NCBI GenBank assembly: GCA_040904565.1
Contig: JBBDTI010000025.1
Location: 1 to 46,879 of the forward strand
Direction: 5' to 3'
From: Rhodothermales bacterium
GTDB taxonomy: Bacteria > Bacteroidota > Rhodothermia > Rhodothermales > VXPQ01
DNA length: 46,879 nucleotides
In this document: positions 6,724 to 22,401 of the stretch, in pieces
Layout of the letters: each line of letters opens with the position of its first letter
Numbering within the stretch: the stretch's first letter is position 1
Position numbers and translations under genes: made by a program
The notes under the pieces: generated by a model
The model's database searches: none
Told to the model about the DNA's origin: nothing
The model's input: the letters and a program-made list of their open reading frames with translations, nothing else

Positions 6724-6763
6724 GGGAATCGAATCGAATGGATTGAACTCGAACACCAGCTCG

Positions 6764-7924: not shown

Positions 7925-7939
7925 TGGCACAGTACTTGA
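7925..7939 (+). promoter_or_regulatory. Putative sigma-54 promoter of the TPR gene
   Basis: TGGCACA-GTAC-TTGA, ending 48 bp upstream of ATG 7988. Confidence 0.55.
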
Positions 7940-7987
7940 ACGTGTTGGTGGCGAAGTCAAACCTCCAACTCACGCAACGCAAACGCC

Positions 7988-8485
7988 ATGCAATCGTACG
8001 ATCGACTTATCGAACAGGCCGAAGAGCGGCTCCGCGGGCAGGACACCGTGCAGGCCATGCAGCTCTACGCCGAAGCCGCCAAGGCCGCGCCGGAGCGCAA
8101 AGAACCGCTGATCGAGCTCGCGCTGCTCTTCATTGCTCACGACGATGTGGACGGAGCCATCGGGTTTCTCGAGAAGGCGCTGTCCCTCGACGGTACCGAT
8201 CCCTTCATCCGGCTCAATCTGGCACTTGCGTGCTACGAGATGAACCGGAGTGAGGAGGCCGCGGATCACTTGACGAAGGCCGTGCTCCTCATTCAGTATC
8301 TCGTCAGCGAGACGCGGATCAACAACATGTTCGGTTCTGCATCCGAGATGGATCTGAAACAGGCCGAAGAGATGGAGACGACGGGCGAGTACGCCATCGA
8401 GCTACTCAAGGAAATGGCCGGTATCACCGAGCCGGACGCGCAGCCCGTCGAGATCCGGAGACCGACGTTCCGTCTGGCCTCATAG
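7988..8485 (+). CDS. Standalone tetratricopeptide repeat protein
   Basis: TPR pattern (AIGFLEKALSLDGTDPFIRLNLALACY); colinear with 16355..16846. Confidence 0.8.
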   Translation: MQSYDRLIEQAEERLRGQDTVQAMQLYAEAAKAAPERKEPLIELALLFIAHDDVDGAIGFLEKALSLDGTDPFIRLNLALACYEMNRSEEAADHLTKAVLLIQYLVSETRINNMFGSASEMDLKQAEEMETTGEYAIELLKEMAGITEPDAQPVEIRRPTFRLAS

Positions 8486-8487
8486 GG

Positions 8488-8516
8488 TGGTTGACAGGCA
8501 GCATGGTTGACAGGCA
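8488..8516. repeat. 13-bp direct repeat TGGTTGACAGGCA, 16-bp period
   Basis: Exact copies at 8488-8500 and 8504-8516 in the intergenic region. Confidence 0.8.
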
Positions 8517-8712
8517 AGGTCTTCCGAATGTGGTAGACCTGCGTGTCGCCGTTCACGTCGTGGAGCGTTCTTCTCCGTCGGATTTCCGATGGTGAGGAAG
8601 AATCTCGGTGTCGCTGCGGGACCGACGGGCAGCCGCCGGGAAGAGCATGAAATTCGGGCATTGAGGATAGCAGCAAGATTAAGATAAGAAGTACGATTGC
8701 GTCTTTTCTACC

Positions 8713-9972
8713 ATGAGCGATAGTCCACACGTACGCCGGATCAAGAAAGGAGAAGACCTTTTCCTGGCCGGCGATCACGCCGCTGCCCTGGACGTTTTCG
8801 AGGCCGTACTTGATGAGGTGCCCGATCATGTCGGTGCGCTCAACGATGCAGCCCTCGCTGCGGCCGAGACGGGCGACGTGGTCAAAGCGGTGCGCTACTT
8901 TGAGCGCGTTCTGGAGCTCGACTCGAGTCAGGAAAACGCGTTCTATAATTTCATCGACCTTCTTGTTCAGGAAGATGCGGCCGATCTCGCCCGGGACGTC
9001 GTTCGGACATACCGATCGGACATACCGGCATCCAGCGAGCTCACGAAGTACGAATCTGCGCTCGGGGTGCTGCCTGATGGCGCGGCGCGCGGAACGGCGG
9101 TGACGGACGTATCCGTGAAGAGCAACCTCGAACCGTCGGGTGACAGGCGCCACGTTATCATCGTAGCGCAGCCGCGAAGCGGCACGACGATTCTGTGGAA
9201 AACGCTCCGTCAGGACCGGCGCCTGGTATGCTTCGACGAGCCGTTTCGACCGCATTTGCGACGATACGTGCTCCAGGAAAGCGACGATAAGAAACAGACG
9301 ATGGGAGAGTATCTCGCCCGCCCCGATCTGATAGAGTCACACTGGAGCACGCTCCAGCCGTTCGAGGAGTTCGATCCGAATCTTGTGGGGCACCAGCGCA
9401 CCTACCTTCAAACGCTTGCTGCGCAGGGTGAGCACGTATGTATGGACTTCGTACGGTGCAGCGCTCATATCGCCGCGCTTCGCCGAGCCGTCCCCGACGC
9501 CTTAATCGTGCATCTGGTCCGTGATCCCCGGGCGTGGGTGACCAGCCATCTCAGACCGTACGGGCGCTGGATGCCCGGGCTGCCCCAAGCTTTTTTCACG
9601 CACGAGGGGAGTTTTGATTTCTGGAGGCGGCAGCAGGCCGCTCAAGTTTTGGGCGCGAAGGGATATGCCCACGAGCAGCTCCTGCAGGTCTGGGATCGTC
9701 TGGTGGCGCTGGCCGAGACGGCTCGCCCGGATCTGACGATCCGCTTCGAGCATTTCGCACTACAACCCGATGACGTGTTGCAGGTGATCTACGAAAGGAT
9801 GAACCTCGACTACCCGTCTCTGGACACCTCGATCGTTCGTAAGCCGAATCCGCCGTTTGCGTTCGATGATGCCCGCTGGGAGCCGGCACTGGCACGATGC
9901 CTCAGTCCGGCTAACCACACGTTTCTGTTCGACTACGAGTCCTGTACGCCGGCGGGGTCGGTCGCAGCGTAG
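8713..9972 (+). CDS. TPR-domain sulfotransferase
   Basis: N-terminal TPR pair; PAPS 5'-binding loop QPRSGTTIL; 3'-phosphate-binding motif HLVRDPRAWVTS; IRFE motif. Confidence 0.85.
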   Translation: MSDSPHVRRIKKGEDLFLAGDHAAALDVFEAVLDEVPDHVGALNDAALAAAETGDVVKAVRYFERVLELDSSQENAFYNFIDLLVQEDAADLARDVVRTYRSDIPASSELTKYESALGVLPDGAARGTAVTDVSVKSNLEPSGDRRHVIIVAQPRSGTTILWKTLRQDRRLVCFDEPFRPHLRRYVLQESDDKKQTMGEYLARPDLIESHWSTLQPFEEFDPNLVGHQRTYLQTLAAQGEHVCMDFVRCSAHIAALRRAVPDALIVHLVRDPRAWVTSHLRPYGRWMPGLPQAFFTHEGSFDFWRRQQAAQVLGAKGYAHEQLLQVWDRLVALAETARPDLTIRFEHFALQPDDVLQVIYERMNLDYPSLDTSIVRKPNPPFAFDDARWEPALARCLSPANHTFLFDYESCTPAGSVAA

Positions 9973-9991
9973 CGGCGTTTAAGCCCCCATC

Positions 9992-10011
9992 CTCGCGGCG
10001 ATCGTCGCGAG
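9992..10011. terminator. Hairpin between convergent genes (possible terminator)
   Basis: CTCGCGGC-GATC-GTCGCGAG stem with one G-U pair, between stops at 9972 and 10022. No U-tract. Confidence 0.35.
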
Positions 10012-10021
10012 CCCACATCCT

Positions 10022-13000
10022 TCAGGCGGCATCGCGCCGCCGGCTCGCAAATCGATCCGCGATCGATTCCGCGGATGCACTAGCCGGTGAAGCCATGCTG
10101 CCGGACATACTTGTTATAGCGAGCTGTGACGCCGGCCGCGACGTCACCACGTTCTCCACGAGTGCATCGATTCGTTCGAGCTGTGTGGCGGCCGTCAGGT
10201 CGTTATCGGTCAGAAGGGACCGATAACGGTGCGGTTCATAGGGAGAATCGTCCAGCATACGGTCGAGAAATTCGTTGAGATTCCTGAAGATGAACTCCTC
10301 CGGCCAGATCTCGCGGCTCTCGCGCCACGCATGGATCACGGGCTTCAGCCCTGCAGCCATTCCGTTTCCGACCGCATAGTGGAAGGATTCTTCGAGCGAA
10401 AAGCTGAGAATATGTGATTTGTCAACGAGCCATGCATCCAGGTCGTCGATCCATTCCTCGACGATCGTGATGTGGGAATGGAGATCCAGCTCATCCATCA
10501 TCGTCTCGACGGCCATTTTGTAGCGTAAGTCCTGCCAGTCGCCCCGAATGAACAGCCGGTATGCCGGGTCCTCGCGCCGCAGTGCGTCGAAAAACTGCAG
10601 AAGCATCGGGAGGCCCTTTCGGTGATTGATGTGACCGAGAAGCAGGAGATTCTTGGTATTCGACTTGTCGGGAGGAATCGCGAATCGATCCACGGTCACG
10701 CCGTTTCGAATGACGACCTGATCGACATCCGCTGCCGGAACGAGACGGTTGAACAGGTCGCGCTTGTGCTCGGCGACGAAGACGAGTCGGTCGACGACGG
10801 ACCAGTTGATATCACGGATATACGGCGTAAACACTTCGAAGCCGTGCAGTCGGCAGATGACGGATCTCGACGAGAGGGCGTCGATCTCGTGGGTCACCTT
10901 CGCCGTAAGTGGACTCGCCCACTCCAGCCAGACGACGTCCGCTTCGTCTATGGCGCGGCGGGCCGTGGTCAGGTCCGTCGTCTTGAGATACGTGGCGCTG
11001 CACTTCGACCGCCAGTGCTCGACCACGTGATCGAGATGTCCGCCGGTGCTGATGCCGTCCTGCTCGAGAAACAGAATCCTGCTCGGCGTGCTGTGGTCGG
11101 GCGTGCTGTGGGCGGGCGTGATGCGAGACCCGGCCTCGTCGCGCTCCGGAGGTCGACTCGAACTCTGTGGGCGCTCGTAGCCGAAGAACCGGATCTGATC
11201 GCGGCATTCCCGCTCCAGTATGGCGTGTTGCTCGTCGGACCAATCTGAAGGCAGGGGGAATTCTCCCTGTTTCTGAGCATTCAATTTCTTGTTCAGGATG
11301 TCCGCGGCGGCGTCGCGATCGAATCCGTCGAGGCCGAGAACGTCGAACAGGTGCCGGGTTACGTCGGGATCCTCTACGAGGTCCTCGAAGCGGACGATGA
11401 CGTAGCGGTCGTCGGGGAGCCGGTCGATCTCTTCACGAATGCGACGATACGTCTCGTTCCACAGCCAGCACACCTTTTCGAACGGCGTGCGATCCGTCCA
11501 CCCTGCGGCTTCGGCGTGATCCGGCTCGGGGCGCAGTCGCCCGGCGTCCCACGCGTGCCCGCGGTAATACCCGCGCCGCATTCCGGAACGCACGAAGTCC
11601 CACGGATTTCGTACGAGGACGATGAATCGGGCTTCGGCGATATCCTGCCGTATGACGGAGGCGAAGGCGGTCATGTTATGATCCAGCTCGCCGAATACAA
11701 GGCTGTCCTTCCAGGCATCACGCAGGACGTGCCCGCGAGCATTCCAGAAGGTCTTTCGGGCGTCGATATCTTCGTGATAGGCGGCGAGTGTTTCTTCGAC
11801 GAGGTACGGACGAGGGTGGTGGTATACTCTGGCGTTCGCGGCGGTGCCGAGGAGCGCGGACAGCGTCTGGGTGCCGCAGCGCCCGGATGACAGGCAGAAA
11901 AAGGCCTCCCCGGTCGTATCTGAAAGATGGTACCGTCCATAACCGTTCGGCTTCTCCACATCCCGCCAGCGATCGAGATGCTGTGCTACCGAGGCGGCAA
12001 TCCGTTCGTCCAGGCCGGTTGCCAGGGGGGCCGGCAGGTCGTAGACGGCTGCAGACCCCTCCGCTTCATACCCTCCCTCTTCGATCATTGCCGACGTGGG
12101 TAGATAGGCTTTGAGACCGTTCGAATATCCCAGGATGGCCGACCAGTCCGGAAGGTCGGTGTGCCGGGACACGTATCGGGCGAGCTCCCCGACGACTTCA
12201 CCGGGGCACGTGATGAAACACGTGCCCTCGCCTAACGCGAGAAATTGAACCTCGATCGATAAATCCCTCGCCCGCTCGTCCTCCGGGATGGCGGCCTGCC
12301 GGCCCGCCCACTGCCTGTTCACCAGCGGAACGTCATCACTCTTTGCCATTGCCTCGAGCACCTCCGTTGACGGAGGCGGCTGGAAGTCGAGCCGGATCGT
12401 ATCGGTCCGGGCGAAGATGGGACCGTTTACGGACCGAATGCTTCGTCTGAGGGCGTCCGTAACGGCTCGTCCGAGACATCTTGCGTTCAGGTCGACGCCT
12501 TCCGGCGATGTGGTGAATGACGTTTCTCCGTTTTTTACACGGGTCTGCTTTGCGCTTCCGCCGGCGGCCTGCAAGAACATGACTGTATGTGCCACGTCCG
12601 CCTCGACAAGATGAGCCCGCAGGGAGCCGGGAAAATCCGCGGATATAACCTCCCGGTTTCCCAGCCCGGTTGGATGGCAGCCGTGGGCGACCACGGCGGT
12701 GGTCGATCCGTCGTGAAGATGATCGACGACGAGGATCGGCGTGTCTTCAGCATAGAATCCTTCATCGTTGATGCCGAACTGGATCCGGCCGTCCACTTCG
12801 ACGCGGCGATTGGAACCTATCCTCGCATCCGTGCCGGTTGCATAGATAAAGCACGGGCGGAGCCGCTCGAAGAGCTGCGGCAGCAGCTCGCGTATCGTAG
12901 CGGTGACCTTGTTGGTATACGATGCGTCGAAAGCACCGATGGCCGGCGTGACGTGCCGGCACGTGCCGGGGGCGTAATGGGTGTGCGATGCGTTCAGGAG

Positions 13001-13666
13001 AAGGGCCTCCGGAGGAATGCCCCATTCGCGCGCTGTGCGGCGAACGTGCGCGACCGTTGTGTCGTCGAAGCCGAAGAGATCCGCGCTTACGATAAGGCAC
13101 CGGGAGCCGCACTCGTCTTCGAGTAGAAGGAGCTGAAGGAGAAGGGGCGAATGAACGGCTCGAGCGGTTCGGGGCGGTCCTGTAAATCCCTGCAGGACGG
13201 GTCCATCTTCACCCGGCTGGGGCGTAATATTGACGGAGACCTGTGCGGCCCGGTAGGGGGTGGAAGCCTGCGTCAACCCGCCCAGTACGGCGGCACACCG
13301 CCGATCGTCGGGCGACACCCCGCCGGCGCGCGGTGAGTCGTCGCGCAGTGATTCGGCATGCGATGATTCGTCGCGCAGTGATTCGGCATACGCCTTCACG
13401 TAGTCGTGGATGGCAGGTTCTTTAACCAGCTCCGAGAGATTCTCGATAATGCCCTTGTTGGAAGGATCTAGACGCAGCGCGTGCAGATGAGCGTCGACGC
13501 CTTTCTGTATGTCCCCGGAGTGGAGTGCGGCGATACCGACGTTCGTCAGGACGGAGACGTCTCGTGGATGCTCGGCCAGCAGATCCTCGAAGAGCGTAAG
13601 CGCTTCATCAGGCCTGTCATCCCGGAGCAATTGTTCTCCACGTTGAAGGTGTTCGTGAACGTCCAT
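10022..13666 (-). CDS. Multidomain protein: TPR + neutral/alkaline ceramidase-like amidase + sulfotransferase + GT4 glycosyltransferase (1214 aa)
   Basis: TPR N-terminus; ceramidase-family motifs NASHTHYAPG, GCHPT, ISADFPG, PGE, GYSNG..YLPT..EGGYE; sulfotransferase motifs SGRCGTQTL and LVRNPWDFVRS; GT-B motifs RLHGFE, KG and SLEESFHYAVGNGMAAG. Start placed at MDVHE. Confidence 0.85.
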   Translation of the reverse strand: MDVHEHLQRGEQLLRDDRPDEALTLFEDLLAEHPRDVSVLTNVGIAALHSGDIQKGVDAHLHALRLDPSNKGIIENLSELVKEPAIHDYVKAYAESLRDESSHAESLRDDSPRAGGVSPDDRRCAAVLGGLTQASTPYRAAQVSVNITPQPGEDGPVLQGFTGPPRTARAVHSPLLLQLLLLEDECGSRCLIVSADLFGFDDTTVAHVRRTAREWGIPPEALLLNASHTHYAPGTCRHVTPAIGAFDASYTNKVTATIRELLPQLFERLRPCFIYATGTDARIGSNRRVEVDGRIQFGINDEGFYAEDTPILVVDHLHDGSTTAVVAHGCHPTGLGNREVISADFPGSLRAHLVEADVAHTVMFLQAAGGSAKQTRVKNGETSFTTSPEGVDLNARCLGRAVTDALRRSIRSVNGPIFARTDTIRLDFQPPPSTEVLEAMAKSDDVPLVNRQWAGRQAAIPEDERARDLSIEVQFLALGEGTCFITCPGEVVGELARYVSRHTDLPDWSAILGYSNGLKAYLPTSAMIEEGGYEAEGSAAVYDLPAPLATGLDERIAASVAQHLDRWRDVEKPNGYGRYHLSDTTGEAFFCLSSGRCGTQTLSALLGTAANARVYHHPRPYLVEETLAAYHEDIDARKTFWNARGHVLRDAWKDSLVFGELDHNMTAFASVIRQDIAEARFIVLVRNPWDFVRSGMRRGYYRGHAWDAGRLRPEPDHAEAAGWTDRTPFEKVCWLWNETYRRIREEIDRLPDDRYVIVRFEDLVEDPDVTRHLFDVLGLDGFDRDAAADILNKKLNAQKQGEFPLPSDWSDEQHAILERECRDQIRFFGYERPQSSSRPPERDEAGSRITPAHSTPDHSTPSRILFLEQDGISTGGHLDHVVEHWRSKCSATYLKTTDLTTARRAIDEADVVWLEWASPLTAKVTHEIDALSSRSVICRLHGFEVFTPYIRDINWSVVDRLVFVAEHKRDLFNRLVPAADVDQVVIRNGVTVDRFAIPPDKSNTKNLLLLGHINHRKGLPMLLQFFDALRREDPAYRLFIRGDWQDLRYKMAVETMMDELDLHSHITIVEEWIDDLDAWLVDKSHILSFSLEESFHYAVGNGMAAGLKPVIHAWRESREIWPEEFIFRNLNEFLDRMLDDSPYEPHRYRSLLTDNDLTAATQLERIDALVENVVTSRPASQLAITSMSGSMASPASASAESIADRFASRRRDAA
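13338..13389. repeat. 22-bp direct repeat (30-bp period) in a linker of the fusion gene
   Basis: TCGTCGCGCAGTGATTCGGCAT at 13338-13359 and 13368-13389; encodes AESLRD twice. Confidence 0.85.
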
Positions 13667-14003
13667 CGTCGATGCGATTGTAATTGGGAAGGCCTGGTGT
13701 GTCGTGTGACGGCACAAAAAACATTCCCTGGTGCGAGGTCGGGCCGCGCACGGTGCATCTCGCCATCGGGACGTGCCATCCGACGATCCGTCGAGCAGAG
13801 CTATCTGCGCTCGGCGAGCGTCGCCGCGCCAGGGAAAGGATGGGATCGCCGGATTGGGGCGCGACGACATCGCACGCGAACCGTCGCGCGCGTGGCGTGA
13901 GGCAAGAAAGTATTTCCGGGATGATGCAAGGACTGCCTATGGGACGAAGCCGTCAGCCCGCGTATCAGGCGGGTTCTTGAGAGAAGTTACCTCGGCCTTG
14001 TGT

Positions 14004-14019: not shown

Positions 14020-14117
14020 CCGTCGGCAAGAGAACGCGATCCGTGCCCGGAACCGCCTCGCGAGGCGTACCGCTCGATCGCACCATACGTTCGAGAGTGA
14101 CACCAAAGAGCCTACCC

Positions 14118-15089
14118 ATGGCTGATATTAAAGGAAGCCGCGTGCTCGTTATCGGAGGCGCCGGCTTTATCGGATCTCATATCGTCGATCGATTGCTACG
14201 TGAAGATGTGGGAGAGGTCGTCGTCTTCGACAATTTCTGCAGGGGTTCCAGAGAAAATCTCGCTCAAGCGCTGACGGACGACCGGGTTCGAATTTTTGAA
14301 GCGGGCGGCGACATCACCCGGCCCGACATCCTGCGAGCGGCGGCGGAGGGATGTGACTACGCCTTTCACCTCGCCGCGCTGTGGCTGCTTCAATGCCACG
14401 AATATCCGCGCGCGGCCTTCACCGTCAACGTCGAGGGGACGTTCAACGTCCTCGAGGCGTGCCGCGATGCCGGCATTAAGAAGCTCGTCTATTCTTCGTC
14501 CGCCTCCGTGTATGGGGATGCGCTCGAAACGCCCATGACTGAGGATCACCCGTACAACAATCGCACGTTTTACGGTGCGACCAAGATTGCCGGCGAACAT
14601 ATGTGCCGGGCGTTTAACGAACGATACGGGCTCGATTACGTCGGCCTTCGCTACATGAACGTGTACGGGCCGCGGCAGGATTATAAGGGGGCGTATGTGT
14701 CCGTCATTATGAAAATCCTGGATCGTATCGACGCCGGACTTCCCCCCATCGTCTATGGAGACGGTTCGCAGGCGTACGATTTTATCTATGTGGAGGAAGT
14801 GGCCCGCGCCAATCTGCTCGCCTTGCAGTCCGACGCGACGGACGAATGCTTTAACGTAGGGTGCGGCCGGAGCACGTCCATCAAGGCGCTCTGCGAGCTT
14901 CTCCTGGAGCTGACGGGCAGCACGCTGCCGATCCAGTACGAGCCGGCCGGACAAACCTTCGTGACGCGGCGCGTGGGGTCGACCGAAAAGGCGGAGAGGC
15001 TGCTGGACTTCAATTCAGAGGTAGAACTCGCTGACGGACTGCAGCGCCTCATTCGATGGCGGCGCGCCGATATAGCCCTCGCCGCCTGA
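14118..15089 (+). CDS. NAD-dependent NDP-sugar epimerase/dehydratase (extended SDR)
   Basis: GGAGFIGSH, SSSASVYG, YGATK and RYMNVYGPRQ motifs. Confidence 0.95.
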   Translation: MADIKGSRVLVIGGAGFIGSHIVDRLLREDVGEVVVFDNFCRGSRENLAQALTDDRVRIFEAGGDITRPDILRAAAEGCDYAFHLAALWLLQCHEYPRAAFTVNVEGTFNVLEACRDAGIKKLVYSSSASVYGDALETPMTEDHPYNNRTFYGATKIAGEHMCRAFNERYGLDYVGLRYMNVYGPRQDYKGAYVSVIMKILDRIDAGLPPIVYGDGSQAYDFIYVEEVARANLLALQSDATDECFNVGCGRSTSIKALCELLLELTGSTLPIQYEPAGQTFVTRRVGSTEKAERLLDFNSEVELADGLQRLIRWRRADIALAA

Positions 15090-15112
15090 ATCCAACCAAT
15101 CCACTTCTGACG

Positions 15113-16300
15113 ATGCAAAATATACCCATTACCAGAGTGCTTTTCGACGAGGCGGAAATAGAGGCCGTCCAGGAGCCCCTGCGCAGCGGCTGGATCGTGC
15201 AGGGGCCGTACGTGGCCGAGTTCGAACGTAAGTTCGCCGACTTCGCGGGGTCGAAGCACGCCATCGCAACTACATCTTGCACGACGGCGCTACATCTATC
15301 GCTGGCCGCGGCGGGAATCGGACCGGGCGACGAAGTGATCGTACCCGCGTTCACGTGGGTGGCGACGGCGAACGTCGTCGAGTACATGGGTGCGAAGCCG
15401 GTCTTTTGCGACATCGACCTCGAGACGTTCAATGTGGACGTCGACCTGCTGCCGGACCTGATTACGGATCGGACGCGGGCGATCATACCCGTGCACCTCT
15501 TCGGACTTCCGGCCGACATGTACGCGATACGGCGTCTGGCCAGGTGGCACGACCTCGTCGTCGTAGAAGACGCCGCCTGTGGATTTGGAGCCACGTATGA
15601 AGGCACCCACGTCGGCACGCTCAGTCATTTCGGCTGCTTCAGCTTCCATCCTCGAAAAGCGATCACGACGGGCGAAGGCGGGATGATTCTCACACAGCGC
15701 GACGACGCGGCCGAGCTGTGCCGGACGCTGCGGGATCACGGAGCCAGCAAAACCGACCTGTCGCGACACGCAGGAAGCGGCGGATTCCTGCTACCCGCCT
15801 ACGATCACCTCGGCTACAATTATCGCATGACGGACCTTCAGGGCGCGATAGGGTCCATGCAGATGGATAAGGCCGGCGAAATCCAATCCGCCCGCGTTCA
15901 CCGGGCCGAACGATACGACGACCTGCTCGAGTCCACGTCGTGGCTTCGGACGCCGACCGTTCCCGAAGGCAGCACGCACGCCTACCAGTCGTATGTCTGC
16001 CTTTTCCGACCCGAGCCGGTGTCCACGAAGAACGTCGACCGGCTGCATCAGCGCCGGAACGCGCTGATGGCCGAACTCGAATCGCGCGGCATCGCAACGC
16101 GGCAGGGGACCCACGCCGTCACGTCCCAGGGCTACTATCGACGGAAGTACGGCATCCATCCTGAAGCGTATCCCCAGGCTCTCCTCGCGGAGCGCCTCTC
16201 GCTGACGCTTCCGGTGTATCCGCAGATGACCGACGAAGAACAAGACTACGTGGTGGCCCAGCTTCACCAGGTGTTCGAGTCGTACCGGCGCGCGGCCTGA
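15113..16300 (+). CDS. DegT/DnrJ/EryC1/StrS family PLP-dependent sugar aminotransferase
   Basis: SCTTALHL, PVHLFG, VEDAAC, FSFHPRKAITTGEGG and GYNYRMTD motifs. Confidence 0.96.
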   Translation: MQNIPITRVLFDEAEIEAVQEPLRSGWIVQGPYVAEFERKFADFAGSKHAIATTSCTTALHLSLAAAGIGPGDEVIVPAFTWVATANVVEYMGAKPVFCDIDLETFNVDVDLLPDLITDRTRAIIPVHLFGLPADMYAIRRLARWHDLVVVEDAACGFGATYEGTHVGTLSHFGCFSFHPRKAITTGEGGMILTQRDDAAELCRTLRDHGASKTDLSRHAGSGGFLLPAYDHLGYNYRMTDLQGAIGSMQMDKAGEIQSARVHRAERYDDLLESTSWLRTPTVPEGSTHAYQSYVCLFRPEPVSTKNVDRLHQRRNALMAELESRGIATRQGTHAVTSQGYYRRKYGIHPEAYPQALLAERLSLTLPVYPQMTDEEQDYVVAQLHQVFESYRRAA

Positions 16301-16354: not shown

Positions 16355-16846
16355 ATGGAGACGTACGAGCAGCTACTGGATCAGGGTGAACGACTCGTGA
16401 GAAGCGGCGACCAGGTGGCCGGCGTTCGCAAATACGCGCGCGCGGCCGAACTCGACCCCAAGCGAAAGGAGGCTTTCACGAAGCTGGGGCTTGTCTATCG
16501 GGAGTACGGGGACGTCGATAGCGCGATGAACTTCTTTGCTCAGGCGGCGAGCCTCGACGAGAAGGACGCCTTCGTTCGATTCAATCTCGGTCTGATCCAG
16601 TACGGGGAAGGGATGCTGGATAGGGCGCGTGAGACGCTCGAGGAAGCCGTATCGATCGTGCAGACGGGCATTGCCGGTGCACGCGTCGAAGCGGAGGGGC
16701 TGCGGTCCGACAAGCAGGGCATCCTGCTCCACCAGTGTGACGAGTTGGAACAGACGGTCGTTGACGCGCAGGCGCTGCTCGCGCAGATCGCCACGGATCA
16801 GGCGGCGACGCCGGAGTCCGGGTTCGCGAGCGGTCAGGCGGGATAG
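16355..16846 (+). CDS. Standalone tetratricopeptide repeat protein
   Basis: TPR repeats (AAELDPKRKEAFTKLGLVY; AASLDEKDAFVRFNLGLIQY); paralog of 7988..8485. Confidence 0.85.
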   Translation: METYEQLLDQGERLVRSGDQVAGVRKYARAAELDPKRKEAFTKLGLVYREYGDVDSAMNFFAQAASLDEKDAFVRFNLGLIQYGEGMLDRARETLEEAVSIVQTGIAGARVEAEGLRSDKQGILLHQCDELEQTVVDAQALLAQIATDQAATPESGFASGQAG

Positions 16847-16886
16847 CCTGCACGGCTGAGGGTTAGCATAACCACGGGAGAACGCC

Positions 16887-18842
16887 ATGTGCGGTATAGC
16901 AGGCATTATGAACGCGGACGGCCGGCCGATTTCCGGTCCCTTGCTGCGGCGAATGACGAACGCGCTTCGCCATCGGGGACCGGATGGGGAAGGGTACGTC
17001 GTCAGCGGTCGAATCGGACTCGGACATCGACGACTGGCCGTCCTCGATCCCTCGCCGGCGGGTCATCAGCCGATGCAGACGGAAGACGGTCGCTTCGTGA
17101 TCAGCTATAACGGCGAAGTGTATAATTTCCAGAATCTGCGCCTGACGCTGGAGTCGCTCGGCCACGTGTTTCGCTCGAAGACGGACACGGAAGTGGTCCT
17201 ACGGGCATTCCGGGAGTGGGGGCCGGACTGCGTCAAGCGGTTCAACGGCATGTTCGCATTCGCCGTGTGGGATGCCGTGGAACGGCGGCTCGTGCTCGCG
17301 CGGGATCGGTATGGGATCAAGCCGCTCTATTATACCCACTCAGACGGTTCGTTTCTCTTCGGCTCGGAGATCAAGGCGATCCTGGCCCATCCGTCCGTCT
17401 CCGTACGGGTATGCATCGAGGCAATGAACGAGTATTTCTCGTTCCAGAACGTGTTTTCCGACCGGACCCTCTTCGAAGGAATCAGGATGCTTCCCGCGGG
17501 AACGATCATGCTCGTCAGTGCGGACGGAACGGTTCGCAGCGAGCGGTACTGGGATTTCGATTTCAGAGACTCCGATACGTTAACCGAGTCGGAATGCATC
17601 GAAGGATTTCAGTATTACTTCGAGCAGGCCGTCAACCGCCAGCTGGTCGCCGATACGGAGGTGGGCTCATTCCTCAGCGGCGGGATCGACTCCGGATCCA
17701 TCACGTCGGTCGCGTCCAAGAGCTTTGACTTTTTGAAGACCTTCACCTGCGGCTTCGATCTTCGATCCGCCTCAGGGCTCGAGTTGAACTTCGACGAGCG
17801 AGAGCGGGCCGAACATCTATCCTACCTGAACGGCACCGAGCATTACGAGGTCGTGTTGAAAGCCGGCGACATGGAGCGCGTCATGCCGGACCTCATCCGC
17901 CACATGGAGGACCTCCGCGTCGGACAGAGCTATCCCAACTATTACGTCAATCGCCTGGCCGGCAAATTCGTAAAGGTCGCGCTTTCGGGCACCGGAGGAG
18001 ACGAACTCTTCGCCGGATATCCGTGGCGCTACTATCGCGCCGTCGTGAATGCCGATGCCGACCATTACATGGACAAGTACTATCGCTACTGGCAGCGACT
18101 CATCCCGGACCGCATCAAGCCGGACTTTTACCAGCCGGACATCTACCCGGAAGTGTGGAATCACCAGACGAAGGACGTATTCAACCAGGTTATGAACGGC
18201 CGGGCAGAGAATCTGGCGACGCCGGAAGAATACGTCAATCGGTCCCTCTATTTCGAGGCCAAAACCTTCCTGCACGGACTCCTGGTCGTCGAAGACCGGC
18301 TCAGCATGGCGCACGGGCTCGAGGTCCGCGTGCCGTTTCTGGACAACGATCTCGTGGACTTTGCGATGAAGGTGCCCGTCCGGTACAAGCTGCGCGATCT
18401 GCGTGACGTCGTTCGGCTCAATGAAAATGAGCCGGGGCGGAAAACCCAGCAATATTTTTCCCGCACGAACGACGGCAAGCTCCTCCTGAGAAAGGCTCTG
18501 GAACGGTACGTGCCGGCCGAATACGCGCACGGCTGCAAGCAAGGATTCTCGGCGCCGGACGGCAGCTGGCTCAAAGGGGAGAGCATCGATTACGTACGAG
18601 ACCTCCTGTTTGACGACCGGGCTCGCATCTACGATTACATCCAGCCCGAGACGGCGCAGGGGCTCATGCGGGAACACTTTGAAGGTCGCACGAACCGCCG
18701 GCTTCTCATCTGGTCCCTGCTCTGCTTCGAATGGTGGTGCAAGACGTTCATGGAGGACCGGCATGCGCCCGAAAAGGGCCTTCGATCCAACGGCCGCCGT
18801 CAAGAGACTGTCCCCATTCAGACATTGTCCGCAGCAGCATGA
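16887..18842 (+). CDS. asnB: Asparagine synthase (glutamine-hydrolysing)-family amidotransferase, probably acting on a sugar
   Basis: MCGIAG N-terminus, HRGPD, GHRRL, YNGEVYN, LSGGIDS, SGTGGDELFAGY and EVRVPFLD motifs. Confidence 0.95.
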   Translation: MCGIAGIMNADGRPISGPLLRRMTNALRHRGPDGEGYVVSGRIGLGHRRLAVLDPSPAGHQPMQTEDGRFVISYNGEVYNFQNLRLTLESLGHVFRSKTDTEVVLRAFREWGPDCVKRFNGMFAFAVWDAVERRLVLARDRYGIKPLYYTHSDGSFLFGSEIKAILAHPSVSVRVCIEAMNEYFSFQNVFSDRTLFEGIRMLPAGTIMLVSADGTVRSERYWDFDFRDSDTLTESECIEGFQYYFEQAVNRQLVADTEVGSFLSGGIDSGSITSVASKSFDFLKTFTCGFDLRSASGLELNFDERERAEHLSYLNGTEHYEVVLKAGDMERVMPDLIRHMEDLRVGQSYPNYYVNRLAGKFVKVALSGTGGDELFAGYPWRYYRAVVNADADHYMDKYYRYWQRLIPDRIKPDFYQPDIYPEVWNHQTKDVFNQVMNGRAENLATPEEYVNRSLYFEAKTFLHGLLVVEDRLSMAHGLEVRVPFLDNDLVDFAMKVPVRYKLRDLRDVVRLNENEPGRKTQQYFSRTNDGKLLLRKALERYVPAEYAHGCKQGFSAPDGSWLKGESIDYVRDLLFDDRARIYDYIQPETAQGLMREHFEGRTNRRLLIWSLLCFEWWCKTFMEDRHAPEKGLRSNGRRQETVPIQTLSAAA

Positions 18843-19534
18843 ATGACGTTGACGTACAGGCGGTCGTAGACCGGAGACTTGAAGGGCTCGAACGATACGG
18901 GCGGTCTGCCGCCGCACTGGGCGACGGCAAGGGCGGTCGACAGGACGTGCGCTTCGCCGTCTACGCGGAGTACATCCTGGACCATGACGATGCGTCCGTG
19001 CTGGATCTGGGGTGCGGATTTGCCGATCTGTTCGAATATCTACGGCGCCGGGGATGGCGCGGCAGATATAGGGGCGTCGAGATCGTGCCGGAATACGTCG
19101 AGCAGATACGGCGGATCCATCCGGAATTGGAGGTCCTGCAGGGCGACGTCGAGACGATGCTGGAAGACCTGCCGACCCACGATTTCGTCGTTGCGGCGAG
19201 CATCATGAATCTCCGGCTGAAGGCCGGCGAGAATGAAGCCTATATCCGACGCATGATGCGCCGCATGTTCGACCGGGCCGACGTAGCGGCGGGGATGGAC
19301 TTCATGACCACGTATGTGGACTGGCAACATCCGGATGCGTGGCACACGGACCCGGCATGGGCGGTCACCGAAGCGAGTCGCCTGACACGGCGCGTCGTGC
19401 TCCGCGCCGATTTTATGCCCTATGAGTTCGTGCTCATTCTCTTCAAGGATGATCGAGCGTCAGTCCGCAACGTCTACCGGGCGTTCGAGGCACGTTTAGA
19501 CGCGTCGGAGGTCGGAGGCGGGGATGATGCGTGA
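18839..19534 (+). CDS. Class I SAM-dependent methyltransferase
   Basis: SVLDLGCGFAD motif I and YRGVEI motif; ATG overlaps the asnB stop (ATGA). Confidence 0.88.
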   Translation: MNDVDVQAVVDRRLEGLERYGRSAAALGDGKGGRQDVRFAVYAEYILDHDDASVLDLGCGFADLFEYLRRRGWRGRYRGVEIVPEYVEQIRRIHPELEVLQGDVETMLEDLPTHDFVVAASIMNLRLKAGENEAYIRRMMRRMFDRADVAAGMDFMTTYVDWQHPDAWHTDPAWAVTEASRLTRRVVLRADFMPYEFVLILFKDDRASVRNVYRAFEARLDASEVGGGDDA

Positions 19535-20810
19535 CGGGTACCTCGCCGTACTGGGCGGCAACAAGATGGCCTGCCACGGTATCGAACGACTCGAAGCCCT
19601 GGGCTATCGCCTGCTCGTGCTAGACGGCAATCCACAGGCCGCCGCCCGTACGCCCGGACGTCCCTTCCTGGCCGTCGATTTCTCCGACACAAACGCAGCG
19701 CTCCGCGCGCTGGAGCCGTTCGAGCTGGGTGGCATCATGCCGTTGAACGATTTCGCGGTTCGCTCGTCGTCCCGCATCGCAAGAGAGCGTGGACTCCGGG
19801 GATGGACCGAGGAGACGGCGTACCGGTTGACCAATAAGGCGGCCATGCGAGCGGTCTGGCGTGAGGCGAACCTGCCACAGCCGTCCTACTGTTCCGTGTC
19901 CATCGAAGACCTGCTCGCCGGTCAGCATCCCGTATGGGATTCATTCCCATGCATCGTCAAGCCCGCCTTCGCGGGAGGCGCCAGCCGGGGCGTCCACCTC
20001 GTGCACGACTGGGATGAGGCACGCGCCGTCGTCGAAGCCACGCGCGACGTCTACCTGGATGCCGACGTCGTCATCGAAGAATACGTACGCGGCACCGAGC
20101 ATACCCTTGAAGTCGTCGTAAGGGATGGCCGGCCGACGCTCCTCTCCATCTCCGACAAACAGAATTACCCGGGTCACGTCAGCGTCGTCCAGAACCTCTA
20201 CTTTCCCGGCCCGGTCGGGTGGGCCGCGCACGATCGATTATGCGACCTTGTTTTTGCCGCCTGCGGCGCTCTGGGGGTGACCGACGGAGCCTGCCATTTC
20301 GAAGTGCTGCTTACCGAGCACGGCCCGCTCCTTCTAGAGGTGGGCGGACGGCCGGGCGGTGGACTCAACTTCGATCCGATCTGCCGGCTTTCGACGGGCT
20401 TCGACTATCCGAGCCTGCTCGCCTGCATTCTAACCGGAGAATCTCCCCGGTTCGTCCGTCAAGAGCCGTGTCACCTGGCCTGGCACTACTTCGACGGCGG
20501 GGACGGAACGGTCCAGGACATCATAGGAATGGACGAGGTCGATGGGGCCGATGGCGTCGTGGATGTCGAATGCTACGAGCGCGTGGGAGAGCCGCGCCGC
20601 CGCCTCACCGACGACCTTGAACGCCCCGGCTACGTGCTCGTCCGCGCCGACAGCCATGGCGCCGCCCGAACGCTCGCCGCACGGATGTGCGACCGTATAG
20701 AAGTTTTGACCCACGCGCCGACATCGAAGTCGCTCCATACCGAACACCTAGCTACCGCATCACATGAAGATACTGGTTGGTACACACGAGATATGCCGGC
20801 AGGCGTATGA
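19524..20810 (+). CDS. ATP-grasp domain ligase
   Basis: NKAAMR, IVKP..GGASRGV, VIEEYVRG.E, HFEV and LLEVGGRPGG motifs. Confidence 0.88.
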   Translation: MMRDGYLAVLGGNKMACHGIERLEALGYRLLVLDGNPQAAARTPGRPFLAVDFSDTNAALRALEPFELGGIMPLNDFAVRSSSRIARERGLRGWTEETAYRLTNKAAMRAVWREANLPQPSYCSVSIEDLLAGQHPVWDSFPCIVKPAFAGGASRGVHLVHDWDEARAVVEATRDVYLDADVVIEEYVRGTEHTLEVVVRDGRPTLLSISDKQNYPGHVSVVQNLYFPGPVGWAAHDRLCDLVFAACGALGVTDGACHFEVLLTEHGPLLLEVGGRPGGGLNFDPICRLSTGFDYPSLLACILTGESPRFVRQEPCHLAWHYFDGGDGTVQDIIGMDEVDGADGVVDVECYERVGEPRRRLTDDLERPGYVLVRADSHGAARTLAARMCDRIEVLTHAPTSKSLHTEHLATASHEDTGWYTRDMPAGV

Positions 20811-22401
20811 CCTGGCCGCGGCGTTTCGTACCCTCGGCCACGAGGCTGAAACCGTTATGGTGGCCCGAAATCCACAGCACCCTGAACTCGTCTACGACCA
20901 CGTGTACGATCAGGGTGCTCTCTGGCAGCACTACGTACGATTGACGAAGCAGCCGATCGAGTCCTGGCTCCACCCGGAGCCCGATCTCGTTCGGCTGCGC
21001 GACATGCTGACCGGCTACGACGCCTACGTATTCCAGTTCTCGCACAGCCTGCTGCCGTTCAATCAGGATTTTCCCATCCTGCGCCGGCTGGGCAAGAAAA
21101 TCCTATCACTCTTCAATGGAAGCGATATTCGCCACTGGTCGGCCGCAAAGCCTATCGCGGATAAATACGGGTATCACGTACCGGATCTTCTCTGGCAGCC
21201 GCCGTACAACGATCTCAATTCACGCATGCACAACCTACGCATGGCGGAGCGGTATGCGGACGCCCTGTTTGGAGCACCGGGGTGTTCCCAGCTGGCCGTT
21301 CGACCGTACTGGCAGTTTCCGATTCCGGTAGACCTGTCGCGGCTCGTCGAGAACGTGCCCCGGCGCGACGTCCCGGTCGTCGTGCACGCCCCATCCCGTC
21401 GCGGTTATAAGGGGACGACCGAGATCCTGGAGGTACTCGAGCGACTGGAAAGGGAAGGCATTCGATTCGATCTTCGGTTGCTAGAAGACGTACCTAACCG
21501 GGAGGTCCTCCGAGAGCTCACGCAGGCAGACGTCGTTCTGGATCAGCTCAATGCTCCGAATTATGCGATGCTCGCCCTGGAAGGGATGGCCACGGGCTGC
21601 GTCGTCGCCGGAGGTAGGAATCCGAACTACATGCCGTTCTACAGTAGTGCTCCCGTCTACGAAATCACGCGGGAGGGCCTCTACGAACAGCTCAAACGAC
21701 TCCTTACATCCAAAGACCTGCGTACGGAATTCGCCGTACAGGGACGTTCCTACGTGGAGCGCACGCACGGTCGCATCGCCGTCGCCGAATATCTCCTGTC
21801 GCGTCTCGAGACGTCTGACGAACCGGACTACTTTCCGACCTTCGTGGCGCGGCGATATCATGTGCCGGAGGAGTGCCAGGTGTCCGATCGCGTCAGGAAG
21901 TTGACGGCCGAGGTGGTGCAGCGGCACGGACTGCCTCACGGTGTAACGGCACAGGACATGGCGCGGCGCGGACTGCTAAATCCGGATGTGCTCGACGCGT
22001 CGCGCCCGATCACGTCCTGGCAGCCCCTCCACGAAGATCAAGCGGAGGAGATCTGGGGATGGAGCCGCTTACTGCGAAGTGTCGATCGTCCGGGGACTCC
22101 GTGCGTGGCCGGCACGATCCTTCACCACGTTTCCCGCGCGATCCGTGCCGTCGAGGAAAAGGACTTCGACACGGCTTCCGGGCTGCTTCAAGAATGCATC
22201 ACGCTGTTGACGGAGCACGACGCCGTCACTATGGACGCTGCCGTGCTGAAGGCGATCGGGCGTTTAGCGCGCGAACTCAACGAGCCGGCGCTTGCCGCCG
22301 GACTGTGGCGGCAGGCGGCCGCACTCGACCCGGACTCGGATCAGGAGCTGGCTCCCGCTATCGCCGAATTGGATGCTCCTACGTCCGTGCAGGCAGCGTA
22401 G
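20764..22401 (+). CDS. GT-B glycosyltransferase with C-terminal TPR-like helices
   Basis: [27 protein letters not shown] and ALEGMATG motifs; C-terminal [14 protein letters not shown]-like segment. Confidence 0.82.

Follow-up and report, generated by a model that had tools for sequence, protein, structure and literature searches.

A predicted cytoplasmic glycosylation island with sulfotransferases beside the flagellar flgF-flgL operon of a Rhodothermales bacterium

A 46,879-nucleotide stretch of DNA from a Rhodothermales bacterium (contig JBBDTI010000025.1, assembly GCA_040904565.1; here, the window) probably carries an island of genes whose cytoplasmic products glycosylate the flagellar filament protein. 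The island occupies a hypervariable site next to flgF-flgL. Across the Rhodothermales, this site normally holds a TPR-glycosyltransferase built like FlmG of Caulobacter. In the window, the decoration of flagellin is probably a modified, sulfated amino sugar. The initial annotation had proposed flagellar glycosylation, a reading supported by synteny, co-occurrence with flagella, a PAPS synthase and the absence of export and membrane parts; these, together with domain identities and folds and tight operon packing, were observed directly, and from them we infer the chemistry of the glycan, its acceptor and its sulfation.

Gene content and borders of the island

Profile searches (Pfam and NCBIfam) bore out the ten genes first annotated beside the flg operon (7988-22401), which lie between flgFGAHIJNKL and housekeeping genes. 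The island is bordered on one side by an M90 peptidase gene and on the other by a small conserved ORF upstream of a gene for an FAA hydrolase.

17..6984, minus strand: flagellar operon of flgL (partial, 17-163, Flagellin_N-type match), flgK, flgN, flgJ-like, flgI, flgH, flgA, flgG and flgF (Pfam matches; gene order the same in relatives)
6983..7855, plus strand: M90 (MtfA-like) peptidase (PF06167, E 3.7e-52), divergent from flgF; conserved edge of the variable site
7988..8485, plus strand: stand-alone TPR protein 1, 165 aa (Pfam TPR families); candidate acceptor-binding adaptor
8713..9972, plus strand: TPR plus PAPS-type sulfotransferase, 419 aa (Sulfotransfer_3, 53.1 bits, cut-off 27)
10022..13870, minus strand: giant ORF, 1282 aa (TPR; Sulfotransfer_3, 41.7 bits for the whole protein; Glyco_trans_1_4)
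14043..15089, plus strand: SDR nucleotide-sugar enzyme, 4-epimerase class, epimerase/dehydratase family (Epimerase, E 1.5e-59)
15056..16300, plus strand: DegT-family PLP sugar aminotransferase (PF01041, E 7.8e-114)
16355..16846, plus strand: stand-alone TPR protein 2, 163 aa (TPR families); paralogue of TPR protein 1 (33.5% identity over 155 aa)
16887..18842, plus strand: AsnB-type glutamine-dependent amidotransferase (Asn_synthase and GATase_7; N-terminal M-C-G-I nucleophile present)
18731..19534, plus strand: SAM-dependent methyltransferase (Methyltransf_25/11)
19524..20810, plus strand: ATP-grasp amide ligase of the L-amino-acid-ligase type (ATP-grasp_4 and LAL_C2)
20764..22401, plus strand: 545-aa GT-B (GT4-like) glycosyltransferase with a C-terminal helical TPR-like repeat (fold model)

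The M90 gene also adjoins flgF in nine of 18 relatives' loci and in locus L067. Pfam and fold models agree with the enzyme domains originally listed (epimerase, DegT, AsnB, methyltransferase, ATP-grasp, two GT-B and two sulfotransferase domains). Four of the five proteins described as TPR bearing are clear cases, but the fifth, the 545-aa glycosyltransferase, has one sub-threshold C-terminal TPR_2 match (E 7.7e-4, 19.8 bits, cut-off 27) and a modeled helical repeat. Pfam otherwise gives this protein a weak Glyco_trans_1_2 match only; its model (pLDDT 93.7) is GT-B/GT4-like, with MshA, BshA, PimA and PglA as top Foldseek matches. Its 76 relatives at an E value of ≤0.001 (own cluster included) mostly carry no source name or are called "hypothetical protein," and a few are named glycosyltransferase.

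The seven plus-strand genes from the SDR to the 545-aa glycosyltransferase form a tightly packed operon, in which the methyltransferase likely starts at 18839, as suggested by an ATGA overlap with the AsnB stop codon. The best solved relatives of the SDR are NAD-dependent epimerase/dehydratase family proteins (as deposited) and UDP-glucose 4-epimerases, with WbpP and WbgU also among them. Its sequence contains S-S-S-A-S-V-Y-G and Y-x-x-x-K and lacks the T-D-E dehydratase motif. ArnB and perosamine synthases are the nearest solved relatives of the DegT protein, which scores below the NCBIfam PseC/LegC equivalog cut-offs. As read, the sugar pathway is incomplete, which counts against the proposed function: the SDR belongs to the epimerase class, and the island contains no dehydratase or oxidase to supply a keto substrate for the aminotransferase. 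The ATP-grasp protein is closest to the solved L-amino acid ligase 3vot (E 9.9e-16), and an AsnB homologue (57-59% identical) adjoins Maf in Desulfamplus.

The 419-aa TPR-sulfotransferase has P-R-S-G-T-T and R-D-P...S motifs. Its TPR is 41-48% identical to that of relatives' flagellar-locus TPR-glycosyltransferases, pointing to the same targeting module, here on a sulfotransferase. A TPR-sulfotransferase of the same architecture (TPR 47% identical) is found in locus L058. PAPS could be supplied by the genome's PUA_2, ATP-sulfurylase and APS-kinase fusion (Sat-CysC), the synthesis route that the initial annotation had suggested searching for.

The cytoplasmic appearance originally noted holds: no 19-residue hydropathy window exceeded 1.6 in any of the ten island proteins, whereas FlgH, FlgI, the M90 peptidase and a Wzx-like protein, used as controls, all did. 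Pfam detected no initiating phosphoglycosyl transferase, flippase, polymerase or chain-length regulator within the island. The claim that a flippase is lacking stands for the island itself but not for its surroundings, as a Wzx-like gene (27523-29028) lies 5 kb beyond it, past housekeeping genes. This gene and one for a FemAB-like acyltransferase are located 5-7 kb downstream. Pseudaminic/legionaminic acid synthase genes were first reported as missing, and indeed neither NeuB nor a CMP-sugar synthetase is encoded in the window; a clear NeuB is encoded on another contig, in an O-antigen-like locus with Wzy. MAF_flag10/Maf was found neither in the window nor elsewhere in its genome.

All four flagellin genes of the genome are on other contigs. 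The central stretch of the encoded flagellins is rich in Ser/Thr (19-23% S+T), and the flagellins of 279-280 aa have two tyrosines each, both in conserved terminal helical regions. A sigma-28-like promoter pattern (TTAAG-N13-18-[GC]CGATA), which precedes flagellin genes on two contigs other than the window's, had no match in the entire window, so that co-regulation with late flagellar genes lacks support, and this counts against the flagellar reading.

The giant protein

The giant protein combines TPR, neutral-ceramidase-fold hydrolase, sulfotransferase and GT-B domains, in that order. Its true start is probably Met69 (13666), given that a stored identical protein is 1214 aa long and that an ATG lies at 13664-13666.

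13421..13663, minus strand: N-terminal TPR domain, residues about 70-150 (TPR_14/TPR_16)
11951..13273, minus strand: neutral-ceramidase-fold hydrolase domain, residues about 200-640 (AlphaFold and Foldseek)
11171..11923, minus strand: sulfotransferase domain, residues about 650-900 (Sulfotransfer_3, 46.9 bits for the domain alone)
10121..10993, minus strand: C-terminal GT-B (GT1-type) domain, residues about 960-1250 (Glyco_trans_1_4, 29.7 bits for the domain alone, cut-off 27)

The hydrolase domain, of roughly 440 residues, had escaped the initial annotation and has no Pfam match (PF04734 included). In the AlphaFold model it has a pLDDT of 91.8, the top Foldseek matches are the neutral ceramidases 2zws (E 1.1e-24), 2zxc and 4wgk, and Ceramidase_alk clusters make up 27 of 30 matches by Atlas features. 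Invariant or near-invariant alignment columns include H296/H298, R355/R356, H396/H399, E558, Y589 and Y601. A lipid substrate is unlikely. The sulfotransferase domain resembles the CurM sulfotransferase and TPST-2 folds (Foldseek) and has invariant G-R-x-G-T and R-x-P...S columns. Fusion of a ceramidase-like hydrolase to a sulfotransferase domain is a combination undescribed so far.

Distribution and synteny

Among 120 genomes of the order, not counting the window's own, 35 carry relatives of the giant's GT domain. Flagellin is encoded in 34 of these 35 carriers, compared with 66 of the 120 genomes overall, and only one of 54 genomes without a flagellin match has the GT domain, related genomes being non-independent samples in these counts. 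The single carrier without flagellin (G097) is 96% complete and in 530 contigs. In two families of the order with nine genomes between them (f5 and f6), the carriers are exactly the two genomes with flagellin. The domain thus does not concentrate in nonflagellated relatives, a distribution that would have spoken against the initial annotation.

Synteny was compared within ±10 kb of 18 hand-picked matches from the 35 carrier genomes. As anticipated in the initial annotation, the GT relative adjoins the flg operon or flagellin genes in 15 loci (M90/flgF in 11, flagellin in four); in the other three, this flank contains no flagellar gene. Most relatives are plain TPR-glycosyltransferases, those at the flg-side site being 598-723 aa long. 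Site architectures include TPR-GT1, TPR-GT1-methyltransferase, TPR-GT1-GT4-GT2 plus a TPR-sulfotransferase, sulfotransferase proteins with PylC-like ATP-grasp, and giants of 1390-1400 aa (GT1-TPR-GT2-TPR-sulfotransferase), and sulfotransferases are present in four of the 18 loci. The flgF-side site is hypervariable across the order, and its mixed architectures identify it as a variable glycosylation island.

The closest full-length relative of the giant (54% identity, uncultured Rhodothermales record) sits at the same site, with the FAA hydrolase on one side and M90/flgF on the other. The hydrolase-sulfotransferase core is also present in other phyla. It lies beside Maf, flagellin, FliD or APS kinase in six of 32 wider loci, and in the remaining 26 the flank covered shows no flagellar gene. 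In locus L069, the core is flanked by a Maf-TPR protein and by GT41-TPR, flagellin and FliD; in L075, it lies between flgI/flgK and a flagellin, immediately following an APS kinase gene; and in L071 and L085, flagellin genes are within 10 kb. A hydrolase-only relative (no sulfotransferase domain) adjoins Maf in L093, with SDR, DegT and AsnB homologues. All 15 other core-carrier genomes tested have flagellin genes.

Proposed function and alternatives

The seven-gene operon would tailor a nucleotide sugar: the epimerase-class SDR and DegT aminotransferase may generate an amino sugar, AsnB may amidate a carboxylate, the ATP-grasp ligase may attach an amino-acid or carboxylate cap via an amide bond, and the methyltransferase may add a methyl group. 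The giant's GT-B domain and the 545-aa enzyme would attach the sugars to Ser/Thr of flagellin that is still unfolded and awaiting export, aimed by TPR modules that are either fused to enzymes or free, as in the two small TPR proteins. Later tailoring would take place on the protein-bound glycan. There, the ceramidase-fold domain may strip an N-acyl group, and the giant's sulfotransferase domain and the separate TPR-sulfotransferase may add sulfate from PAPS made by Sat-CysC.

An acceptor other than flagellin is unlikely, be it a different flagellum-exported or flagellum-resident protein (hook, FlgK/FlgL or cap) or a cytoplasmic or secreted protein unrelated to the flagellum. In 11 of 18 loci, the neighbor of the GT relative is the rod/hook-associated operon (flgF..flgL) rather than flagellin, and the genome's flagellin genes lie on other contigs, but four loci place the GT relative directly against flagellin genes, and the core adjoins Maf and flagellin outside the order. 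The Ser/Thr-rich center of the flagellins likewise favors them, and they are the only acceptors demonstrated for TPR-bearing flagellar glycosyltransferases in the portions of the literature examined.

Sulfation of flagellin itself, on Tyr, Ser or Thr side chains rather than on a glycan, is very improbable, even though the closest solved folds of the giant's sulfotransferase domain include the tyrosylprotein sulfotransferases 3ap3 and 5wri (E about 1e-6 to 1e-7) and one sulfotransferase is fused to a flagellin-type TPR without a glycosyltransferase. The few tyrosines are confined to the terminal helical regions, sulfotransferases accompany glycosyltransferase domains in the giant and in four of 18 loci, and the CurM-type sulfotransferase outscores TPST in Foldseek.

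Least probable is a cluster for tailoring a surface polysaccharide (LPS, capsule or EPS) that neighbors flg genes incidentally and whose sulfated product would be exported via the nearby Wzx-like flippase or O-antigen-like machinery elsewhere. In its favor are the downstream Wzx-like and FemAB-like genes, another locus of the genome with AsnB, sulfotransferase, NeuB, GT4s and Wzy (which makes amidated, sulfated surface glycans plausible in this organism) and two distant relatives of the 545-aa protein fused to flippase domains (P0128 and P0131). Against it, the island has no initiation, export, polymerization, chain-length or membrane components, and housekeeping genes stand between the island and the Wzx-like gene. 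Across all 18 loci, the 10-kb flanks of the GT relative yielded neither a Wzx nor a FemAB homologue. The GT domain also follows the distribution of flagella, and TPR targeting modules suit a protein acceptor.

Comparison with known systems

Several known systems resemble parts of the proposed flagellin glycosylation island. The giant's hydrolase domain shares its fold with the neutral ceramidases of Pseudomonas aeruginosa (2zws/2zxc) and human ASAH2 (4wgk) (E 1e-24 to 4e-21, TM 0.49-0.52 on target) and a conserved HxH, Arg, His, Glu and Tyr...Tyr pattern, its two tyrosines being 12 residues apart, as are human Tyr579/Tyr591 in the available text of PMC6952831. Unlike those enzymes, it is cytoplasmic, without a signal peptide or a PF04734 match, shares a polypeptide with a sulfotransferase and is encoded in a sugar context. 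Heparan-sulfate N-deacetylase/N-sulfotransferase NDST1 (8chs, a weak Foldseek match of the giant's sulfotransferase domain at rank 35, E 1.8e-4) likewise combines an amide hydrolase and a PAPS sulfotransferase in a single polypeptide. The neutral-ceramidase fold is unrelated to the NDST deacetylase domain; the likeness is one of logic alone, and N-sulfation is hypothetical.

The literature searched contained no sulfated bacterial flagellin. The Type B flagellin O-glycan of the Gram-positive Clostridium difficile is described, in the available part of PMC5207245, as a sulfonated peptidylamido-glycan in which an amino sugar and an O-methyl sugar are accompanied by a peptide cap in amide linkage and a sulfur-oxygen acid group. 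In the island, DegT, methyltransferase, ATP-grasp/AsnB and sulfotransferase genes hint at chemistry of this kind. The C. difficile glycan differs in having a C-linked sulfonate from taurine rather than PAPS sulfate, and no sulfotransferase is named in that part.

According to the accessible portions of PMC7591256 and 10.1101/2023.12.03.569772, flagellin is bound by the TPR domains of FlmG and Maf-1, and there are also stand-alone specificity factors. In the Maf systems so described (TPR-bearing Maf-1; Maf-2/GlfM), flagellin binding falls to the TPR, and a small, separate specificity factor is encoded next to the enzyme. By analogy, the two free TPR proteins could act as GlfM-like adaptors, although GlfM is a four-helix bundle and not a TPR protein; no MAF_flag10 domain is present in the window or was found in its genome, but Maf genes adjoin homologues of the giant in L069 and L093.

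FlmG of Caulobacter crescentus and Brevundimonas subvibrioides transfers pseudaminic or legionaminic acid, whereas the window has no NulO synthase or CMP-sugar synthetase, and the giant inserts hydrolase and sulfotransferase domains between TPR and GT. The likeness is architectural, sequence kinship not being demonstrated: as described in the published text available, this flagellin O-glycosyltransferase, like the giant, begins with a TPR and ends with a GT-B domain, is soluble and cytoplasmic, and is encoded with flagellar genes, and the giant's relatives in the order are likewise TPR-GT proteins.

Gene content of the island

The favored reading of the ten genes at 7988-22401 is a cytoplasmic island for flagellin glycosylation. 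The window is a complete contig of 46,879 bases, one of 95 from a 4.02-Mb genome (G+C content, ~61.5%; completeness, 94.9%), and Pfam and NCBIfam scans bore out the ten genes that the initial annotation had placed beside the flg operon.

Features of the flagellar region and island (coordinates, strand, and identity)
17-163: flgL fragment
262-6984 (-): flgK-N-J-I-H-A-G-F operon (Pfam and NCBIfam scans)
6983-7855 (+): M90 (MtfA-like) metallopeptidase gene, divergent from flgF
7988-8485 (+): TPR protein 1 (Pfam/NCBIfam)
8713-9972 (+): TPR-sulfotransferase (Pfam/NCBIfam)
10022-13870 (-): giant ORF, 1282 aa (Pfam/NCBIfam)
14043-22401 (+): tightly packed row encoding SDR, DegT aminotransferase, TPR protein 2, AsnB, methyltransferase, ATP-grasp enzyme, and a 545-aa protein

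The AsnB stop codon overlaps the methyltransferase start as ATGA (18839-18842), and the giant protein probably starts at Met69 (13666), because an identical stored protein has 1214 aa. Four island proteins have clear TPRs, while the fifth of the five TPR-bearing proteins counted initially was assigned from a sub-threshold match. The 545-aa protein has weak Pfam matches; its model (pLDDT 93.7) has a GT-B/GT4-like fold, with MshA, BshA, PimA, and PglA as best fold matches, and a C-terminal helical repeat. No 19-residue hydropathy window above 1.6 was found in the ten island proteins, a value exceeded by FlgH, FlgI, M90, and a Wzx-like protein elsewhere in the window. The absence of hydrophobic segments from all ten agrees with the cytoplasmic location, without signal peptides, claimed for the island.

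TPR protein 1 and the TPR-sulfotransferase were also considered as halves of one broken gene, which was rejected because each starts with its own TPR domain and TPR protein 1 has a full-length paralogue. Downstream of the island, an Arg/Leu-rich ORF of 226 aa (22753-23433, +) has no family match; its translated relatives are 35 to 41% identical and adjoin the FAA hydrolase gene in three relatives' loci (L053, L055, and L067), which points either to a small conserved gene or to conservation of another frame. Within 29936-33150 (-), hslU and hslV, normally adjacent, are separated by an NYN-domain gene of 355 aa (31429-32496).

Flagellar linkage within the Rhodothermales

Compared with the closest named record (uncultured Rhodothermales), FlgF, -G, -H, and -I are 62 to 76% identical and FlgA, -J, -N, and -K are 39 to 54% identical. 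The giant protein and a flagellin family were each searched against 120 other genomes of the order. The GT domain (residues ~910-1280) was matched in 35 genomes at 27 to 39% identity, and flagellin was found in 66. All GT-domain carriers but one (34/35; the exception is genome G097) have flagellin, and of the 54 genomes in which no flagellin was matched, one has the domain; this is to be read as a pattern rather than a statistic, since the genomes are related and therefore non-independent. Families f5 and f6 comprise nine genomes, and the GT domain is present in the two that have flagellin and in no other. The co-occurrence check proposed initially thus places these relatives mainly in flagellated genomes.

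Synteny gave the same picture. Flanks of ±10 kb were fetched at 18 of the 35 matches, hand-picked for contig size and family spread, and flagellar genes were located by tblastn. The GT relative adjoins M90/flgF in 11 loci and flagellin genes in four, so that 15 of the 18 are adjacent to flagellar genes; no flagellar neighbor was found within ±10 kb in the other three (L052, L059, and L060). The divergent pairing of the M90 gene with flgF is itself kept in nine of the 18 loci and in L067.

The four flagellin genes of the window's genome lie on other contigs, and the three read fully or nearly so encode Ser/Thr-rich central parts. Sigma-28-like sequences (TTAAG-N14-15-GCCGATA) lie upstream of flagellin genes at C48:3300 (+) and C14:27496 (-), on two of these contigs. 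The broader motif TTAAG-N13-18-[GC]CGATA has 44 matches genome-wide and none in the window, which weighs against the flagellar reading, and no co-regulation signal was obtained.

Variable enzyme content of the site

Pfam scanning of 52 proteins from the 18 loci revealed different enzyme sets.

Gene content at relatives' loci within the order
L051, L062: TPR-GT1
L049, L050, L054: TPR-GT1-methyltransferase
L058: TPR-GT1-GT4-GT2 and TPR-sulfotransferase (TPR 47% identical to the window's)
L055: two sulfotransferase proteins, PylC-like ATP-grasp, and GFO/IDH/MocA oxidoreductase
L057, L064: GT1, GT2, and a 1390- to 1400-aa GT1-TPR-GT2-TPR-sulfotransferase

These sets mark the site as a variable glycosylation island. 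The order Rhodothermales (Bacteroidota-related) as a whole would have, beside the rod operon, an FlmG-like, TPR-guided glycosylation site whose enzymes change rapidly. Sulfotransferases occur at four of the 18 loci, in addition to the window and L067, and this recurrence of PAPS sulfotransferases turns sulfation of a bacterial flagellum into a concrete prediction.

Sulfotransferases and PAPS

Both island sulfotransferase domains were recognized by PF13469 (cut-off, 27 bits), with 53.1 bits for the TPR-sulfotransferase and 41.7/46.9 bits for the giant protein. The former contains P-R-S-G-T-T and R-D-P...S, and the family of the latter has an invariant G-R-C-G-T and R-N-P...S; in both domains, we take these motifs to be the PAPS-binding 5'-phosphosulfate loop and 3'-phosphate motif. 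Structural matches, including CurM ST and TPST-2, support the sulfotransferase fold for the giant protein's domain specifically, and a single-sequence PDB search with this domain gave weak matches (CurM-type ST, E 0.0037). The same type of search with the domain of the TPR-sulfotransferase gave chance-level matches only (E ≥ 0.55). The initial proposal to look for PAPS synthesis genes led to a Sat/APS-kinase-type fusion of 601 aa (PUA_2, ATP-sulfurylase, and APS-kinase) on another contig of the genome.

The TPR region of the TPR-sulfotransferase is 41 to 48% identical to that of the relatives' TPR-glycosyltransferases. According to two reports, such a module binds flagellin in FlmG and Maf-1 (PMC7591256; 10.1101/2023.12.03.569772). 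By analogy, a flagellin-binding module of the FlmG/Maf-1 type may here be joined to a sulfotransferase, an arrangement which argues for sulfation of a protein-bound substrate and not of a free nucleotide sugar. Complex prediction for flagellin (6-row alignment) and the TPR of the TPR-sulfotransferase (residues 1-135; 7-row alignment) scored 0.00 in two runs and counts neither way.

In an uncultured delta proteobacterium (L075, 9241-13936), a flagellar locus has an APS kinase gene directly before the giant protein's homologue, where it is an on-site PAPS supply.

Hydrolase-sulfotransferase core of the giant protein

The initial annotation overlooked a ceramidase-fold hydrolase domain in the giant protein. 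TPRs lie at residues ~70-150 and Glyco_trans_1_4 at ~1070-1190, and alignment with 21 homologues revealed a strongly conserved core between them. Pfam gave no family at an E value of ≤1 for residues 150-650, and its blindness to this region required a fold search; PDB sequences gave no match to the hydrolase domain at an E value of ≤10, and a profile search of the protein's family against them was dominated by TPR matches. PF04734 is present solely in stored annotations of some relatives.

Residues 180-930, folded with 28 homologues (pLDDT 91.8; pTM 0.90), matched neutral ceramidases first in a Foldseek search of the PDB (2zws, E 1.1e-24; 2zxc; 4wgk, E 6.3e-22), and the second half of the folded core matched the CurM sulfotransferase 4gbm, followed by TPST-2. 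A protein-atlas feature search placed 27 of 30 matches in Ceramidase_alk clusters (score, 0.93). HxH, RR, HxxH, E, and Y-12-Y show little or no variation across the 22 aligned sequences. For human neutral ceramidase, a review names His196, Arg257, Tyr579, and Tyr591 (PMC6952831), and the conserved sequence pattern fits these residues, which makes the conserved positions candidate zinc and catalytic residues. The giant protein is therefore built, in this order, of TPR, ceramidase-fold hydrolase, sulfotransferase, and GT-B.

The pairing of hydrolase and sulfotransferase would suggest, by analogy with animal NDST, de-N-acylation followed by sulfation, the most daring of the readings. The stronger proposal, that the core is a convergent bacterial NDST counterpart that would deacylate a flagellin-bound amino sugar and N-sulfate the freed amine, we consider rather improbable. 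If true, it would put sulfamate/sulfate glycans on the filaments of Rhodothermales, Desulfobacterota, Planctomycetota, and Myxococcota-type lineages.

Distribution of the core

No full-length orthologue of the giant protein was found in the 120 genomes of the order. A profile search of genome contigs, run from the alignment of the family, yielded 32 loci, including a full-length orthologue (L067; 54% identical) at the same site, flanked by the FAA hydrolase gene and M90/flgF.

Flagellar or Maf-associated loci with homologues of the giant protein
L069 (Desulfobacteraceae): Maf-TPR, homologue, GT41-TPR, 831-aa flagellin, FliD
L075: flgI, flgK, flagellin-N protein, APS kinase, homologue (with GT2), radical SAM and methyltransferases, flagellin
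L093 (Desulfamplus magnetovallimortis): Maf, TPR, GT2 and ceramidase-like protein, SDR (62%), DegT, AsnB (57-59%)

Flagellin lies <10 kb away in two further loci (L071 and L085). Flagellar or Maf genes were present in the examined flank of six of the 32 loci, many of the others being short contigs, and whole-genome searches for 15 of the other 26 found flagellin genes in all 15, records titled Myxococcota, Myxococcales, and Bradymonadia among them. The core occurs in flagellin islands of several phyla.

Some flagellin-family proteins in these genomes are very large. Two adjoin glycosylation genes: an 831-aa protein with a hexapeptide-repeat insert (L069, 17577-20072) and a 1234-aa protein in which an N-terminal flagellin region only was detected (L075, 4542-8246). 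Genomes G121-G125, G131, and G132 (loci L076-L083 and L087; titled Myxococcota, Myxococcales, Bradymonadia, and, in two cases, "bacterium") each have between 5 and 25 flagellin-family matches, a number of which fall within open frames of 1300 to 2269 aa. Such lineages are usually regarded as gliding, and these matches are therefore unexpected.

Predicted glycan and its destination

The closest matches to the SDR are epimerase/dehydratase-family entries and UDP-glucose 4-epimerases, and WbpP and WbgU match as well. The enzyme has the serine-rich motif, which presumably marks epimerases, and no T-D-E motif, which presumably marks 4,6-dehydratases. For the DegT aminotransferase, the closest matches are ArnB and perosamine synthases, and it falls below the PseC and LegC cut-offs; the N-terminal cysteine of AsnB is present, and the ATP-grasp enzyme belongs to the L-amino-acid-ligase type. 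From these sequences, the likely product would be a methylated, aminated sugar that is amidated or carries a peptidyl cap. The keto-sugar step for the aminotransferase is not evident in the island, and the pathway as read is therefore incomplete.

Hook-associated proteins, instead of flagellin, may be the acceptor. The cluster could otherwise serve a surface polysaccharide (a Wzx/Wzy- or ABC-dependent locus), for which Wzx-like and FemAB-like genes 5 to 7 kb from the island might speak, but housekeeping genes intervene before the Wzx-like gene, homologues of neither gene accompany the GT relative in the 18 order loci, and the ten island genes include no initiating transferase, flippase, ABC exporter, or polymerase. 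The initial statement that the last three are lacking thus holds for the island, with a Wzx-like gene 5 kb away. This flippase gene (Polysacc_synt_3) and the FemAB-like GNAT gene (Acetyltransf_6) adjoin hslU at 27523-29918 (-), with no other glycan genes around.

Elsewhere in the genome, an O-antigen/capsule-like locus (L015; contig C40, 235-18748) contains Wzy_C, GT4, GT2, NeuB, a cytidylyltransferase-HAD fusion, AsnB, and sulfotransferase genes. Its product may be a sulfated, amidated nonulosonic-acid surface glycan, and by this gene content the organism may also sulfate a surface polysaccharide.

Comparison with known systems

Most knowledge of flagellin glycosylation comes from the nonulosonic-acid systems (Maf and FlmG) of Proteobacteria and Firmicutes, and TPR-guided cytoplasmic glycosylation of flagellin is already established by FlmG and Maf-1. 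Literature searches returned no description of a flagellin glycosylation locus with a sulfotransferase, of a sulfated bacterial flagellin, or of a sulfamate/sulfate filament glycan; one paper combining flagellin, sulfotransferase, and glycosylation island mentions sulfotransferases for O-chain loci only. Charge on filament glycans is relevant to the adsorption of phages, to attachment to surfaces, to how stable filaments are in hot or saline habitats, and to recognition by hosts or predators. The modular combination of TPRs with enzymes is also interesting for protein glyco-engineering.

Maf (MAF_flag10, PF01973) is absent from the window's proteins and was not found in the 94.9%-complete genome. 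The donor of FlmG, CMP-pseudaminic or CMP-legionaminic acid, has a dedicated pathway with no counterpart here: the window encodes neither NeuB nor a cytidylyltransferase, in line with the claimed lack of the usual synthase genes, and the genome's clear NeuB is in a Wzy-containing locus on another contig.

Neutral ceramidase (PF04734/PF17048) shares its catalytic-domain fold with the giant protein's hydrolase domain; it is secreted or extracytoplasmic and acts on ceramide, whereas the giant protein has no signal peptide or transmembrane segment and is fused to sugar-modifying domains. The island's predicted product resembles the type B flagellin glycan of Clostridium difficile, which comprises Fuc3N, Rha3OMe, and a taurine-Ala-Gly cap (PMC5207245); this glycan, which is sulfonated, is also the nearest case found to a sulfated bacterial flagellin.

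When the class of an Alphaproteobacteria-titled MAG was searched with the GT domain from a plain TPR-GT relative, 19 of 201 genomes matched, 17 of the 19 at weak E values of 1e-9 to 1e-12, and membership in the FlmG family is not claimed. FlmG combines TPR and GT-B in one soluble polypeptide, as do the giant protein and the plain TPR-GT proteins of order relatives, and its genetic linkage to flagella is shared by the GT-domain relatives (15/18 loci and 34/35 genomes). The giant protein may be likened to FlmG in architecture and flagellar linkage.
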